Below, piece after piece: positions 5,490-13,646 of a stretch of DNA of 64,000 nucleotides; positions within the stretch are counted from its first letter, which is position 1; each line of letters starts with the position of its first letter. A program made the position numbers and the translations under genes. The notes under the pieces are model-generated. The model did not search any database. It was given only the letters and a program-made list of their open reading frames with translations, and was not told where the DNA came from. This DNA comes from Patescibacteria group bacterium (GTDB taxonomy: Bacteria > Patescibacteriota > Saccharimonadia > UBA4664 > SCTI01), in NCBI GenBank assembly GCA_004297735.1, contig SCTI01000002.1:417578-481577 (forward strand). The letters are read 5' to 3'.

Positions 5490-8400
5490 TTGGAAGACAA
5501 AAGCTTGCAACAACCTGGACTGACAGGTAGTCAACCCCAGCGAACATCTGGCCCGCCTCAAACGGGTGGTTTAGTGTACCAAAGCGACATTACTCGACCG
5601 CAGCAATTATTGGGCCAACAGGTTGGGGGATTGGCGCAGTCGTTGGGCGCACCAGAACCGTCTAGCGTACCGGCGGAGTCAAGTGTTGCGCCTGAAACGA
5701 CGCCAGCAGTATCAGAGCCTGAGGTTGAAAGTAACCCAGAACCAACTCCCATTCCGGTTACCAACGATGTAACTCCACCTCCAGTGGCAGCTGATCCCGA
5801 ACCTACTCCAGCGGTTGCCGCGCCAGAACCGGTAGCTGGATCCTTAACCGGCGCCCTGGGTTCAGCCGAGGCAATTTCGCCACCGCTACCACCAGCCAAA
5901 TCCGAGGTTGCCAGCCCCTCGCCGACCGGTCCGTCGCGCCCCCGCCTGGGCCGTTTACGAATTGTACTTATCTTGCTGGTAGGACTGTTAATTATTGCCA
6001 TGCTAGCCCCGATTGCTTATCTGGGTTTTGCTAATTTACGCTCTAAGTCGGGTAGCGCTAATAACAAGGTTAATGGGGACTATACCGTTACCACCATACC
6101 GCTAAACGACTTGGTTAAAAGCGGGGACATTTCGTTTGATGCTTCGCGGCGAGTAAACATCAACGGCCAGCTTAAGATTAATAACTCGTTTGTGCTGACG
6201 CCTTCAGATACCCCTGACAATCCGCTGATTGGGCAGTTTTACCTTAACAACCAGAACACCACGCTGTACTACTACAACGGCAACTCATTTGTCGACTTAG
6301 TGACCGGCACACAGCTGGCGCAACTGACCACTACCGTAAATCAGACTCAGGCAATTGCCAATCAGGCTGCCTCCCAGACCATAACTTTGCCTCAAGACTT
6401 GGCAGTGACCGCCACACCAACCTTTGCCGGGTTGAATTTAAGTCAGCCGCTACCAATTGCAAGTGGCGGTACCGGAGCAACTACCGCAGCAGGTGCGCTT
6501 ACAAATCTTGGGGCGGCAGCTAGTGGCGCTAACAGCGACATCACCAGCTTGAACGCGCTGACTGCAATCAGCCCAACTACTGGAGTAACCTACCAGTTTG
6601 CGCCAGCAGTTGCCGGCACCTACGACCTGTGTTCGACCGCGGGTAACTGCGCTGGTGTGGGTGGTGGTGTGACAACCATCGGAGGCACTCCTGGCAGAAT
6701 TGCCAAGTTTAGCGCCGCCCAGGGCATTGTTGACTCGCTGTTGAGCGAAAGCGGGAGCACTGTCACCGCTAATGGAGATCTGGCTGTGACCGGCGGCGAT
6801 CTGGATTTGGGTAACGGAGTTAATCTTGATAGCGCGGTGGCCGATAGTCTGCATGTTGACGCCTCGCTGAACGTGGAAGGTACAATAACCAGCTTCTTGC
6901 AGATCTATTCATCTGAAAGTATTGTTGCGCGAAATGGGTCGAGTAATAAGGTGAGGATCGGTAATGTGGGTCCAAGTAATGAGGCGGGAATTACCTTTAG
7001 TAGCCTGGAGGACGTTAGTATTTACCGCAGTACGGCCGGTACGCTCAAGACCAACGGCAACTTCATTGTTCAGCCAGGTACGAACTCAACCACGGCTTTC
7101 CAGGTTCAAAATGCGGCTGGTACCAGTAACCTACTGGTGGCGGACACTACAAATACGCGCATTGGTATTGGGACGGCGGGGCCAAACTACACCCTAGATG
7201 TTGACGGAGACATTAATACCGGCAGTACCTACCGGATTAATGGAACCTCAATCTGTATATTGAGTGGCTGTGTGCCGTCTTCTGGGTCAAGTGCTTACAT
7301 TCAGAACGGCACGGTGCCGCAAGATGCCAACTACTACTTGCGCAGTGCCGCCGCCAACCAGATCACCGGTATACTGCAGGGCGCGGTTGGCCAGACGGCT
7401 GATCTGATTCAACTACGTAATCAAGCGGGCGGAATTGTTACTAGTGTGGGGGCTGACGGTAACGCTACCTTTACCACCACCAGCAACTCGGCGACCGCCT
7501 TCCAGATTCAGAATTCCAGCGGCCAAAATCTACTGGTGGCCGACACCAGCAACCAGCGATTGGCAATTGGCCCAGCCGCCTCACCGGCAAACAGCGTGTT
7601 GACTGTGGGCTCAAACACGACCGCGGCTAGCGGGGGAATTACTTTTGGGACCGATACTAATTTGTATCGTAGTGCCGCTAATCGGCTAAAGACCGACGAT
7701 AGCTTACAGGTTACAGGTGCTGGTGCATTTGGGAGTTCAGCAACCATACACGATATTGGTGCTATCCGGTCAACGATCAGCGCATCCGAAACCTATAGTG
7801 ATGCTTCCGCAGCAAGCTACATAACTGGCATTGATAATGAGTTGCATTTGAATTCTGACGCTAACGCCACGACCACAATCACGGGTATAGGTAACAGCGT
7901 TTTTCTGAATGGCTCCGGGTCTTACTCTAACTCTGCTGTATCGAGTCAAAATATTCTTTATAACTATAGTACTTCTGCCAGCGCATTAACTGGAGTTGAT
8001 AATAGAGTGGTAAACGAAGGGGACGTGGGCACGGCAATCGGGGGCTACAACGTGTACTCCACAAGTTATGGCACCACCAATCTTGCTCAAGGCTTGGTGT
8101 CGCAAATTTTAGCCACCAGTGAGGCTAATATAACTTCGGCTACGGGGGTATCGGCCGGTATTTCGAATCTTGGAACGGGTACCATAAACAACGGCTATGG
8201 CCTGCTTGTTACAACTGCGGTTAATTCGGGTGGTGGTGTCTTCCAAAACAACTACGGTATGTATATACAAGACCAGTCAGGGGTCGGTTCAACCAATAGC
8301 TACAACTTGTATTCGGCTGGGGTGAACGCAAAGAACTACATTGCTGGACTGCTCCAAGTTGGCACAACCAGCACGCCAACTCAGGCTGGAACAAACTTAC

Positions 8401-12000: not shown

Positions 12001-13646
12001 TGGGGGCCAGTGGCTCATCGACCGAAGGCACAAATACCGGTTCGTGGAAGGGTACACTTTCGTCTGACTCTTACCACTGGGTGGTGGCCAGTACCGCTTC
12101 GGGCATGAATGTGCAGTTAGATACTGGTGGGGTAGCTCTAAACGGTGCCAATGCCATGATGATTGAAACCAAGTTTGACCAAGATGCCACTGTCCCACAG
12201 ACCGTGGTGCAGGTTTGCGACTGGGTATCGACTGCTAGCGTGGATAATGCCGCCGATGCGCAATGTACCGGTGGCGGTTGGCGGACGCTTAACAACCGCA
12301 AAAACCCAACCGATACGGCAGTTGGCACAGTGTTTACCTGGCAGATATATGATGGGTATTGGAATGATGGTACCAATACCGCTGTTAGTACGCCATTGGG
12401 TAACTTCTTAAACGGTTCAAATAGCGTTAAGGTCCGCTACTACTCAACCACCAATACCACCAGTACCTTTGCTATTGACTATCTAGCCATCTCGCCGGTG
12501 GTCAACTCGGTTTACAATGCCGGCGGATTTACCAATCTTGGTAGTGGTTCGGTGAGTGGAACCTATAGTAATACCAATAACTTTATTGGCGCTAATGCTG
12601 GTTTTGGCGGCAATATTCAGCAGCCCAGCGATGACACCCGGTTAACCTGGGCTGGCACCGCTGGTAGTATTGCCGACGGCTACTTAACCTTTAAGAATAT
12701 TAAAATTGTACCCGGCATGAATACAATTGCGTTCCGCGCCGAACATCGCTGTTCGACTACCGGCATTAACTACCGACCAAAGATCTACAACTATACTACC
12801 GCTAGCTGGGAGGATTTGAGCACTAGCTCAATTGCCTGTAGCGCTACCGATGCCACCAGTGTGTTTGCTAAGAACAGCGTTAACTTACGCGACTATGTTA
12901 ACAATGGAGAGGCGCGCCTTGGGTGGTACGGACTATCTAATGGCACCCAGTCGATTGAGATCGATACGGCCTACATTATGGTAGGGGCGGTTAATAGCGA
13001 CAACACAACCTGTAGCATTAGCTTTGGTACCCAAAATGCCGGCAGTTGCGACAACACTCGCAACATTGATACGACCGCCTCGGCTTCAACTTGGGACATA
13101 CTGGCCGAAGACACCTCGACCAATCAGGGACACGATTTTTACCCATTTGATCCTCAGGTTACGGCCTCGGCCAGCCTCGAAGCTAAGGCGGCCCACGTTA
13201 AGTTCCCGGTGTACGATTTAATCAATGGGTCGTTGGTTGGTTTCAACTGGTCGTCGCGTTACCAGTCGGGAACCGGTGGTACGGTGACCCTAGATGTTCG
13301 AGATTACTCCGGTAAGTCTAACGTTGAGGGTGGGTTCAAAAATGTCGGCTCACCGGTAACCAGTGCTTTAGTGTATGTTGACTCAATCTCAATCACCGCC
13401 CCAACCTCTTATAGTCCCTACATGACCAACCCCGAGGATCATCGCGAGCAGCTCACCGGTCAGTCTTGGTTCCGTCTGCGCACCACCGCCAACAGCAGCT
13501 CAGCCACCAACGCGGTCGGCCAGTGGGATTTTGCCATGATCGCACCGATGTGGATCGAAACATCAACCTATCAGCCAGATAGCGATGAGCAAATGCGCCA
13601 TGGTAAATACTTCCGTAATGGCGTTGAACAGCCGATGGTGCAGTAG
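9024..13646 (+). CDS. Giant secreted/anchored surface protein (1540 aa) with an internally duplicated ~200-aa domain and ~7 tandem ~55-aa repeats
   Basis: Its start abuts the stop of the previous gene (taaATG). Signal/anchor MVNDRVRAAIVAGLVIFGALF...AHA. The domain SFQFTPTAGQLVTGT...CDWSSSSSVDNAADSACTGGGWRTLNNRK...YYSTTNTTST.AIDY occurs twice (about nt 9129-9732 and 11944-12530). Between the copies are repeats of the form WRIEKRDKTTGALDGSFG (about nt 10300-11400). Confidence 0.6.
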   Translation: MVNDRVRAAIVAGLVIFGALFQFLPHGVGVPKAHAASFQFTPTAGQLVTGTAQNATSQATANAEGVNVGSYKGTLADDNFHWTFASTTSGYDANLTFGGAAANGANTLIVETEFDLDATAPSTAVQICDWSSSSSVDNAADSACTGGGWRTLNNRKTGITTTSSTAYNWQIGDGYWSNGSNTSISTPITNFINSSNQIKVRFYSTTNTTSTVAIDYVKVQAVINPVYAPGGFVNDGPGATTGDYTNTNAINQGASDNQYVQFDGTAGGAPAGYFVFKNVKTYTGMNTVMARYETACSSATSLRYRAKIRNFQSSTWEDMAGLVDCSTTDATNTSAKNNVTLSNYISGSSEIWVRFEGDANSTNGIKVDQMYIQLGSTNTSTSDCQVSFGTQTAGRMLSNPSTNADVVNDTDVDSNSMYSVGYDSVGGDREWRIEKRDKTTGALDGSFGTSGVVQTNPSSGNDEATTVKVDGSYVYVGGYDNSPGNDEYRVEKRDKTTGALVTAFDSDGIFTSNPGSGSDQIMDIDIDGSYIYIIGSRSTFVARYEKIDITTGAYDTGFDSDGILESSGVSTNRYDPKAIKVDASYIYTIGTESNSLGATSSQQIRIEKRSLTSGAFDGGFGSGGYANSNPTASDADRGYDIAIDASNMYLAEMQGTSGDYRWRIEKRALSNGALDGTFGSATGAVSYNFSGADDEATTIKVDANGIYVGGRDGDPTSTWRIAKLNLSTGALDTSFGADGYSSSQYLGDSLVKTVAIDASYIYITGPTDSDADAQWMFEKHSISSGDVVSSGFGATDCSATRTIDTTSSNTDTWRQQAENESATQGHDYYAYDNDNDGNAEEAAAANLSFPATLPTSAQTTGVFYAGRFNGGMGDTVQLGAKDYTGRNNVTGGWTATGATATSGVAFTDNISGGTTTATGLQANASAYVDSVNSKVNLRLRTTAGGAQTNDSVHDLDFAMVSVQWVENAQTPTRSFMFAPTGGTLVTGTEQNVLGASGSSTEGTNTGSWKGTLSSDSYHWVVASTASGMNVQLDTGGVALNGANAMMIETKFDQDATVPQTVVQVCDWVSTASVDNAADAQCTGGGWRTLNNRKNPTDTAVGTVFTWQIYDGYWNDGTNTAVSTPLGNFLNGSNSVKVRYYSTTNTTSTFAIDYLAISPVVNSVYNAGGFTNLGSGSVSGTYSNTNNFIGANAGFGGNIQQPSDDTRLTWAGTAGSIADGYLTFKNIKIVPGMNTIAFRAEHRCSTTGINYRPKIYNYTTASWEDLSTSSIACSATDATSVFAKNSVNLRDYVNNGEARLGWYGLSNGTQSIEIDTAYIMVGAVNSDNTTCSISFGTQNAGSCDNTRNIDTTASASTWDILAEDTSTNQGHDFYPFDPQVTASASLEAKAAHVKFPVYDLINGSLVGFNWSSRYQSGTGGTVTLDVRDYSGKSNVEGGFKNVGSPVTSALVYVDSISITAPTSYSPYMTNPEDHREQLTGQSWFRLRTTANSSSATNAVGQWDFAMIAPMWIETSTYQPDSDEQMRHGKYFRNGVEQPMVQ

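Follow-up and report, generated by a model that had tools for sequence, protein, structure and literature searches.

A linked pair of giant proteins in a Patescibacteria genome: a predicted membrane-anchored fibre and a secreted, duplicated, lectin-like partner with an inserted beta-propeller

Host recognition and attachment by bacteria of the candidate phyla radiation (CPR), also termed Patescibacteria, remain largely unexplained beyond type IV pili. The proteins now put forward for host recognition in Patescibacteria are large surface proteins bearing adhesion or lectin-like domains (PMC13059738), and lectin-like and dockerin envelope proteins are essential for the epibiotic growth of Southlakia (PMC10633639). 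A stretch of 64,000 nucleotides (nt) from a Patescibacteria group bacterium (assembly GCA_004297735.1, contig SCTI01000002.1, positions 417,578 to 481,577; hereafter the window) carries two abutting giant genes, termed P1 and P2, which an earlier sequence-only reading had taken for adhesin-like surface proteins. What do these two proteins build, and to what would it bind? We find that P1 and P2 most likely form a two-gene, translationally coupled cell-surface unit. As to its function, we tentatively favor, with a confidence falling somewhat short of an even chance, a membrane-anchored stalk (P1) whose constant tip would carry P2, a multivalent lectin-like head with a lateral propeller that would bind the glycans of other cells. 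This reading builds on the export signals of both proteins, fold-level domain assignments, an internal duplication, a propeller with a defined insertion point, and the linkage of the two genes.

5490..9023, plus strand: P1, predicted type II membrane-anchored fibre-like surface protein, 1177 amino acids (aa), EPO04_03925
9024..13646, plus strand: P2, secreted 1540-aa protein with two triple-jelly-roll modules and a propeller, EPO04_03930

Both open reading frames (ORFs) are continuous, P1 starting with TTG and P2 with ATG, and they abut in the junction TAAATG, just as the sequence-only reading had described two intact, co-directional giant frames. NCBI has identical entries, both called hypothetical and assigned to a 'Patescibacteria group bacterium', on a contig of 494,657 bp, and our search of the literature found no description of either family. 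The NCBI annotation begins P1 at GTG 5574, yielding 1149 aa. The 28 codons that precede this position, from TTG 5490, are conserved at the protein level in the orthologues at two related loci, L001 and L009; because the L001 orthologue retains the sequence translated from 5487 on, the earlier start is favored and the annotated one probably lies too late. At pI 4.4-4.5, both proteins are acidic, and T, S, G, A, and N abound in them; their cysteine counts are all pairable, and neither ends in an LPXTG motif followed by a hydrophobic segment and a basic tail.

The architecture of P2, the larger of the two, is dominated by a duplication.

9024..9128, plus strand: P2 aa 1-35, Sec-type signal peptide read from the sequence, hydrophobic at aa 5-30 and then AHA/AS
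9132..10157, plus strand: P2 module 1, A1 (aa 37-222) and B1 (aa 223-378), with cysteine pairs 128/144 and 296/325
10218..11408, plus strand: P2 seven-bladed beta-propeller (aa 399-795), inserted between Cys384 and Cys797
11409..11927, plus strand: P2 module 1, C1 (aa 796-968), placed by self-alignment
11943..13568, plus strand: P2 module 2, comprising A2 (aa 974-1160), B2 (aa 1161-1328), the Cys1330-x11-Cys1342 hairpin, and C2 (aa 1353-1515), without a propeller
13569..13643, plus strand: P2 aa 1516-1540, short C-terminal tail, 52-92% identical in orthologues of the window's type

Self-alignment of P2 pairs aa 37-394 with aa 974-1340 at 50% identity over 369 aa (E 1e-108), and aa ~796-968 with aa ~1340-1515 at 33-36% identity (E 2e-20 to 5e-17). 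Given the extent of these alignments, P2 consists of two ~570-aa modules, each with sub-domains A, B, and C. The duplication that had been proposed from the letters is thus real, with the off-diagonal self-match expected of it and no frame-breaking in either ORF; the repeating unit had been put at ~200 aa and is in fact the ~570-aa module. Module 2 is uninterrupted and module 1 is broken by ~400 aa of repeats. Their DNA periods of 171 and 174 nt give six full units of 54-62 aa plus a half unit at each end, and hence seven blades, in agreement with the roughly seven propeller-like, WRIEKR-type repeats of ~55 aa recognized earlier; each blade carries an extra WRIEKR...G strand. The twelve cysteines of P2 fall into six positional pairs conserved between the modules. 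Since the pair that brackets the repeats, Cys384 and Cys797, corresponds to Cys1330-x11-Cys1342 of module 2, which forms a beta-hairpin in the structural model, the propeller is an insertion into a probably disulfide-stapled hairpin.

What kind of domains are these? The AlphaFold model of module 2, built on 59 aligned sequences, is all-beta and contains three domains (predicted local distance difference test score, pLDDT, 85.8; predicted template-modeling score, pTM, 0.88). Foldseek matches the whole module to multi-jelly-roll proteins, such as GH31 with CBM35, reelin, EngBF, Cry protoxins, and the CBM22 tandem, with TM-scores of only ~0.2, so that no solved structure has its three-domain arrangement. 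Profile comparison makes domains A and B homologues (hhalign probability 97.7%, E 1.6e-12) and leaves the relation of A to C marginal. At the level of folds, the domains conform to carbohydrate-binding modules (CBMs), being beta-jelly-roll sandwiches of ~120-190 aa; at the level of sequence, searches of Pfam, NCBIfam, and PDB sequences place them in no CBM family (CBM_4_9, CBM_6, CBM22, CBM29, and others). The lectin-like fold that had been suggested as a possibility for this gene was therefore recovered in the duplicated domains by structural modeling and Foldseek. An invariant motif in domain A, C-D-W...VDNAAD..C-TGGGWR, is a candidate sugar-binding site. For P1 and P2 in full length, searches of Pfam, NCBIfam, PHROGs, and PDB sequences returned only sub-threshold noise (NHL, RNF220, GH114_assoc, and one delta-60 repeat). 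Flags for ribosome-inactivating protein (PF00161) on some homologues were likewise dismissed as noise, the flags being faint and the propeller profile matching an rRNA N-glycosidase chain only at E 0.37. For the repeats, the delta-60 model TIGR02608 matches a single repeat at 21.2 bits (E 2e-4) against a cutoff of 76.5 bits, and Pfam DUF5122 does not match at all. A profile of seven repeat sequences matches chains of designed propellers and 'Cell surface protein' entries, 8prj (E 9e-20) and 8pra (E 3e-12); judged by blade count and by this profile, P2 aa 399-795 belong to the beta-propeller fold class, which comprises proteins of 4-10 tandem blades.

The P2 module belongs to a family of 129 clusters at 50% identity among 1.84 billion representative proteins, 95 of them matching at E 1e-30 or better. 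All of its proteins are annotated as hypothetical, and most complete members match in two stretches, that is, contain two modules. Among the sources checked, they derive from Pacebacteria/Paceibacterota, Falkowbacteria, Nomurabacteria, Sungbacteria, Berkelbacteria, and Saccharibacteria, or from an unassigned 'bacterium'; the sole entry with another name, at locus L005, is titled 'uncultured Gammaproteobacteria bacterium'. Across several CPR lineages the module is 40-50% identical. By its sequence relatives, then, the family appears confined to Patescibacteria-type proteins, and it is without a Pfam model or a name. Placing the sub-domains on 120 homologues yields five architectures.

(A-B-C)x2: the majority, 1260-1470 aa
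(A-B-propeller-C)x2: P0012-P0024, ~2100 aa
(A-B-propeller-C)x1: P0065 and others, ~1145 aa
(A-propeller-B-C)x2: P0026 and P0027, with P0025 as a variant, ~1900-2650 aa
(A-B-propeller-C)(A-B-C), the window's type: P0001-P0011 only, ~1540-1590 aa

The propeller is absent from some relatives, present in both modules of others, and located between A and B in yet others; as its placement differs among architectures, we regard it as a mobile insertion that has used at least two sites. Among orthologues of the window's type, conservation is highest in A1 (94 down to 70% identity) and lowest in the propeller and C1, where identity drops to 47-52% against 72-85% for A1.

The duplication had also been proposed as a substrate for intragenic recombination, which the DNA of the window does not bear out. 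Spaced 2811-2841 nt from each other, the two copies agree at ~70% of positions over 361 nt, and their longest identical run is 14 nt, too short for efficient homologous recombination, so that the modules make a poor substrate here. The history of the modules differs between architectures, as the identity of A1 to A2 within each protein indicates.

Window's type: 54-60% within a protein, no higher than between lineages
(A-B-C)x2: 65-74% within a protein, against a mean of 55-60% between proteins
(A-B-propeller-C)x2: 95-100% within a protein, with orthologues differing by 13-28%

In each of P0012-P0024, the pair of ~965-aa modules likewise shows 95-100% identity, and the gene for P0017 (L003 8001-14369) contains a perfect 2895-bp tandem DNA repeat. 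Such near-identity in a sister clade points to concerted evolution, or to assembly uncertainty over copy number. In the lineage of the window, where the modules became structurally different, homogenization appears to have stopped. The single-module proteins of ~1145 aa lie mostly on short contigs and could be collapsed assemblies.

If P2 is exported and yet has no LPXTG motif and no second or C-terminal hydrophobic segment, what holds it at the cell? The protein encoded immediately upstream offers a possible answer.

5490..5957, plus strand: P1 aa 1-156, Pro-rich low-complexity N-terminus (19.9% Pro), predicted to be cytoplasmic
5940..6041, plus strand: P1 aa 151-184, sole transmembrane segment (Kyte-Doolittle, 19-residue window, maximum 3.11)
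6465..6512, plus strand: P1 aa 326-341, motif GGTGATTAAGALTNLG, read from the sequence
7011..7577, plus strand: P1 aa 508-563 and 638-696, two ~57-aa NLLVADT..GIG units (self-comparison 46% identity, E 7e-10)
7548..8339, plus strand: P1 aa 687-950, variable cassette modeled as short strands in beta-helix-like succession, a gap in L009 and the part of P1 most diverged from L001
8349..9020, plus strand: P1 aa 954-1177, CBM-like C-terminal beta-sandwich ending ...EINYLSKF (pLDDT ~80-92; Foldseek)

The Pro-rich N-terminus, the single transmembrane segment, and the GGTGATTAAGALTNLG motif of P1 were all found as the sequence-only reading had described them. The basic residues RPRLGRLR stand immediately before the transmembrane segment, which suggests a topology with the N-terminus inside and ~1000 aa outside; together with the signal peptide of P2, this positive charge on the N-terminal side of the P1 segment agrees with the surface-protein character proposed for the pair. 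The repeated NLLVADT units are present, in two copies only, and each is modeled confidently as a small beta unit. A longer internal repeat (aa 490-725 against 726-960), suggested by overlapping BLAST segments to shorter orthologues, was rejected (Smith-Waterman z = 1.0); the difference in length comes from an insertion or deletion of aa 687-950. In the AlphaFold model of aa 183-1177, the confident parts are both repeat units, short regular strands at aa ~782-922 that look beta-helix-like in the model, and the C-terminal sandwich at aa ~982-1177 (pLDDT 80-92). Foldseek matches the C-terminal domain to CBM61, CBM4-2, CBM22, and a MAM domain. Kinship of this domain with P2 domains A, B, and C was rejected on the sequence level (hhalign probability <1%), a BLAST match at E 0.016 being due to chance, and a homologue search with the domain alone returned five fragments and missed known relatives, and was hence uninformative.

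The relatives of P1 are mosaic proteins, mostly from Saccharibacteria-type genomes. The units around NLLVADT (aa 520-720), common to ~70 relatives, are its most widely shared part; the region at aa 200-450, which includes GGTGATTAAGALTNLG, is common to ~40 Saccharibacteria/CPR proteins. Other domains of these relatives vary, among them Kelch, CBM_4_9, Collar, and Peptidase_S74, and some family members with Peptidase_S74 or Collar domains are named tail-fibre proteins. The same genome encodes, outside the window, a P1 paralogue, P0128 (EPO04_03630, 1152 aa), which is 48% identical to P1 over aa 656-965 and 40% over aa 483-578 and does not share its C-terminal domain; to judge from its sequence, it is probably a further case of cassette shuffling among fibre-type proteins. 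At two Saccharibacteria-type loci (L012 1-19193 and L013 1603-16181), three to four giant genes follow one another; their products, 1458-2915 aa long, contain Kelch, CBM_4_9, MAM, or PA14 domains, and several of these proteins end in the C-terminal domain of P1.

This C-terminal domain is the part of P1 that is inherited together with P2. We compared the window with six loci that carry a P2-type gene of the same architecture. At all six, the gene just 5′ of the P2-type gene ends in a P1-type C-terminal domain, and its stop overlaps the P2 start.

L001: upstream partner of 1217 aa, junction TAATG
L009: upstream partner of 893 aa, junction TAATG
L010: upstream partner of 1236 aa with Kelch repeats, junction TAATG
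L011: upstream partner of 1765 aa with a signal peptide in place of the transmembrane anchor, junction TAGTG
L015: upstream partner of 2089 aa, junction TGATG
L016: contig beginning 27 nt upstream, with the last eight codons (...QINYLSKF) of a P1-type C-terminus, junction TAATG

In four of the five complete partners, the C-terminal domain is 67-80% identical to that of P1, and in three of those four the rest of the protein is largely different: the L010, L011, and L015 partners share with P1 essentially its last ~224 residues plus scattered fibre units. As such, the conserved unit is the C-terminal domain of P1 plus P2, and the part upstream is exchangeable. The identity of the C-terminal domain equals or exceeds that of P2 in the same genomes (57-76%) and tracks that of domain A1. 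The L009 orthologue lacks P1 aa 687-950 altogether, and L001 and P1 are only 40-54% identical at aa 751-900, flanked by regions of 82-98%. At these loci, the C-terminal domain of P1 is strictly linked with P2.

This linkage bears directly on an alternative in which P2 is a released, independent factor that binds or degrades polysaccharides, for nutrient capture or for attack on host walls, and P1 is an unrelated neighbor. A signal peptide and no anchor are what such a factor would have, jelly-roll folds also occur in glycoside hydrolases and lyases, and many of the structural neighbors of P2 are parts of glycoside hydrolases. However, the best structural neighbors are non-catalytic modules, no catalytic family is found in P2 by searches of Pfam, NCBIfam, or PDB sequences, and the overlap of stop and start codons together with a constant P1-type C-terminus recurs at 7 of 7 loci, the window included (at L016, in the last eight codons only). 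We consider a free P2 quite improbable.

Other lineages indicate how P2-type proteins might otherwise be mounted. No P1-type gene exists at the loci of Falkowbacteria (L002) and Nomurabacteria (L004) or at L003. There, the giant P2-type protein ends in an extra domain of ~135-165 aa. Directly downstream lie genes for one or two small proteins whose C-terminal half resembles that domain (36-53% identity), in an operon (L002 12476-18923; L004 11991-18896; L003 14432-17470) that also encodes a dockerin protein and a cohesin/Big_13 protein. Behind the (A-B-C)x2 gene of Falkowbacteria, Nomurabacteria, and others, the operon has two such small proteins, paralogues of ~355 aa. By its gene content, the cohesin/dockerin operon looks like an undescribed CPR surface-assembly system. 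A WxL-type identity (PF13731) of the shared C-terminal domain was rejected, Pfam giving no match even at E 10 and one neighbor having only a weak WxLIP_PGBD match (E 0.0095). The window contains no genes of this cohesin/dockerin type, and its P2 has a 25-aa tail in the place of the extra domain. From the comparison with these three loci, the lineage of the window has lost the usual C-terminal domain and its partners and gained a coupled, anchored upstream partner; this exchange is the main, if indirect, reason for thinking that P2 is held by P1.

In the genome, the pair sits inside a tRNA cluster.

5219..5376, plus strand: tRNA-Pro(TGG) and tRNA-Gly(TCC), directly 5′ of P1 (ARAGORN, Rfam)
13701..13940, plus strand: tRNA-Arg(TCT) and tRNA-His(GTG), directly 3′ of P2 (ARAGORN, Rfam)

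A tRNA cluster is split by the 8.2-kb gene pair into Pro-Gly, P1-P2, and Arg-His. The same arrangement recurs in L001 (6086-6247 and 14699-14938) and L009 (5033-5198 and 12687-12927), and is partly kept in L011, with the Arg-His tRNAs downstream. This has the look of an ancient insertion into a tRNA operon, and the pair may be co-transcribed with the flanking tRNAs. An Rfam scan of the window found tRNAs alone, and promoter and terminator scans gave signals no higher than expected from shuffled sequence. Upstream neighbors encode a lamin-tail-domain protein, TsaE, a TsaD-family fragment, RNase Y, YmdB, and HU; downstream lies a MacB/FtsX-type ABC transporter. Just 3′ of tRNA-His, a strong GC-rich hairpin on the minus strand (13980-14009; 13-bp stem, 10 G-C pairs), followed on that strand by a T-rich tract, may be a terminator that separates the P1-P2 unit from the ABC-transporter genes. 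The lamin-tail protein, 367 aa at 112-1215 at the start of the window (PF00932, E 1e-10), is syntenic in L001 and L009 and is likely also exported.

Given adjoining tRNA genes, could the pair derive from a phage, as the tail fibre and the adhesin or chaperone of a prophage or tailocin remnant? Its fibre tip and downstream gene are inherited as a cassette, which recalls phage fibre loci; the P1 family includes the Peptidase_S74 and Collar proteins named for tail fibres; and the P1 model bears a faint Foldseek likeness to Klebsiella and CBA120 tailspikes at E 3e-5 to 1e-4 (K2-2 TSP at E 3e-5, Kp7 gp52, CBA120 TSP4), with TM-scores of ~0.1-0.2. By contrast, P1 gave nothing above sub-threshold noise against Pfam, NCBIfam, PHROGs, and PDB sequences, and tblastn against 50,697 phage records found no match, the GGTGATTAAGALTNLG region reaching E=6 at best. 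The neighbors are housekeeping genes, no paralogue of P1 or P2 lies elsewhere in the 64-kb window, the tRNA-flanked arrangement is stable across relatives, and P1 has a membrane anchor. We give a phage origin hardly any credence. With the sequence searches against phages negative, 'tail-fibre-like' stays an architectural impression of P1, and the resemblance of its repeats to tail-fibre or hemagglutinin repeats that the sequence-only reading had noted is not sustained by PHROGs, Pfam, or tblastn, leaving only the weak match of a low-confidence model. Nor does the pair qualify as a filamentous hemagglutinin of the two-partner secretion type, there being no Pfam or NCBIfam match and no transporter partner among the scanned neighbors.

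A less improbable alternative, though one that we still hold to be unlikely, makes P2, with P1 as its anchor, an S-layer-type or sheath component whose modules tile the envelope. The acidic, Thr/Ser/Gly/Ala/Asn-rich composition of both proteins, the large all-beta multidomain build of P2, and the retention of its module at 40-50% identity across several CPR lineages are as expected of such a component. The tRNA-cluster setting and a promoter-like site upstream of tRNA-Pro could mean high expression, and in other lineages a C-terminal domain is common to the giant protein and the small proteins encoded downstream, which is what subunits of an assembly would be expected to show. Yet the promoter scan did not rise above chance, neither S-layer homology (SLH) domains, of which Pfam found none, nor any other known anchoring domain appeared in Pfam or NCBIfam, and the family, with its 129 clusters, is small and patchy. 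A projecting propeller that is gained and lost between relatives, together with an exchangeable fibre partner, is more what one would expect of a binding device than of a lattice subunit.

We thus return to the stalk and head proposed at the outset. P1, anchored by its one N-terminal transmembrane segment, would project a fibre-like ectodomain of ~1000 aa, with its center variable among relatives and its tip a constant beta-sandwich. P2, exported by its Sec signal peptide and having no anchor of its own, would dock non-covalently on the conserved C-terminal domain of P1. It would contribute six CBM/lectin-like jelly-rolls in two rigid three-domain modules, with the propeller projecting from the stapled hairpin of module 1. 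The cell would thereby show a multivalent, non-enzymatic, presumably glycan-binding head on a stalk, which may bind the surface polysaccharides of another cell, probably the host of an episymbiont. The variability concentrated in P1 aa 687-950 and in the propeller and C1 of P2 is, as far as sequence comparison can suggest, the pattern expected of a specificity-determining surface. An adhesin-type role, as the sequence-only reading proposed, fits because the duplicated domains have lectin/CBM-like folds; it is plausible and consistent with the evidence, and unproven.

Several considerations weigh against this proposal. We infer the P1-P2 contact solely from gene linkage and from the missing anchor of P2, and the linkage could merely reflect recombination breakpoints in the operon. 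The C-terminal domain does not always need P2, since more distant carriers of it (28-39% identity) are not followed by P2-type genes at the three loci examined; two of these (L012, L013) lie among arrays of giant Kelch, CBM, or MAM proteins, and the third (L014) has ordinary neighbors. The model of the P1 ectodomain is poor overall (pLDDT 61, pTM 0.33). Finally, the window itself does not establish an episymbiotic lifestyle for this organism.

A broader conjecture, which we think unlikely as it stands, extends the proposal to the whole P2 family, as an unnamed, Patescibacteria-wide device for cell-to-cell recognition. Lineages would use interchangeable mountings, either a C-terminal domain with a cohesin/dockerin operon or a coupled fibre tip, and would tune specificity by gain and loss of the propeller and, in the sister clade, by gene conversion, through which two 2.9-kb modules would stay identical.

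Whichever reading holds, the locus offers a concrete, testable candidate for a process that is otherwise poorly accounted for in these bacteria, with a defined constant part (the P1 tip domain and P2) and with variability localized to the central cassette of P1 and to the propeller and C1 of P2. As an uncharacterized, group-restricted family with a confident structural model, the P2 module is amenable to recombinant binding work. The pair is also a case of modular evolution, in which fibres are swapped upstream of a constant tip, a propeller is inserted into a disulfide hairpin, and modules are perfectly homogenized in a sister clade. Were P2 structural only, the interest would be limited.

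How does this pair compare with known systems? The best structural neighbors of the six domains of P2 and of the C-terminal domain of P1 are tandem CBMs and surface glycan-binding proteins (SGBPs), namely, CBM29, the CBM22-1/CBM22-2 tandem (4xup), and a Bacteroides SGBP-B (7kwb). Like these, P2 is predicted to be non-catalytic, multivalent, and extracellular, with CBM-sized jelly-rolls; unlike them, it has no sequence membership in a CBM family, packs three domains rigidly (pTM 0.88), and has no appended enzyme. With the delta-60 (TIGR02608) and related cell-surface propellers, among them the 'Cell surface protein' sequences from which the 'Bagel' propellers (8pra, 8prj) were designed, P2 shares a period of 54-62 aa, the motif G.LD..FG..G, and seven blades in all; it differs from them in a score far below the cutoff, in its extra WRIEKR...G strand, and in the insertion of the propeller into a domain array.

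In fibrillar RTX adhesins, ligand-binding domains are said by Graham and colleagues (2024, cited in PMC13059738) to project from 'split' companion domains. The P2 propeller, inserted sideways into a loop of a beta-sandwich scaffold and variable in its presence among relatives, would by analogy resemble this arrangement; unlike RTX adhesins, P2 carries neither RTX repeats nor a signal for type I secretion. To our knowledge, no outer membrane has been reported in CPR. Phage fibre loci, such as the T2-type gp37/gp38 and those of phages Mu and P2, form cassettes of a tip and an adjacent downstream adhesin or chaperone gene, and the constant part of a phage fibre is usually its N-terminus, which attaches to the baseplate. 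As at gp37/gp38-type loci, the C-terminal part of P1 and P2 are inherited together and the rest of the fibre gene is exchanged; in contrast to those loci, there is no sequence or PHROG relation, and it is the membrane-proximal part of P1 that varies and the tip that is constant.

The closest parallels in organism and proposed role are the proteins of Absconditicoccaceae (PMC13059738) and the VCBS/dockerin/FN3 proteins of Southlakia (PMC10633639), which are likewise large, exported, and encoded by the same kind of organism. Their domain families differ, and the P2 module and the C-terminal domain of P1 are named neither in those papers nor in Pfam. P1 and P2 are thus undescribed families within a known category, the large lectin-like surface proteins of episymbiotic ultra-small bacteria.

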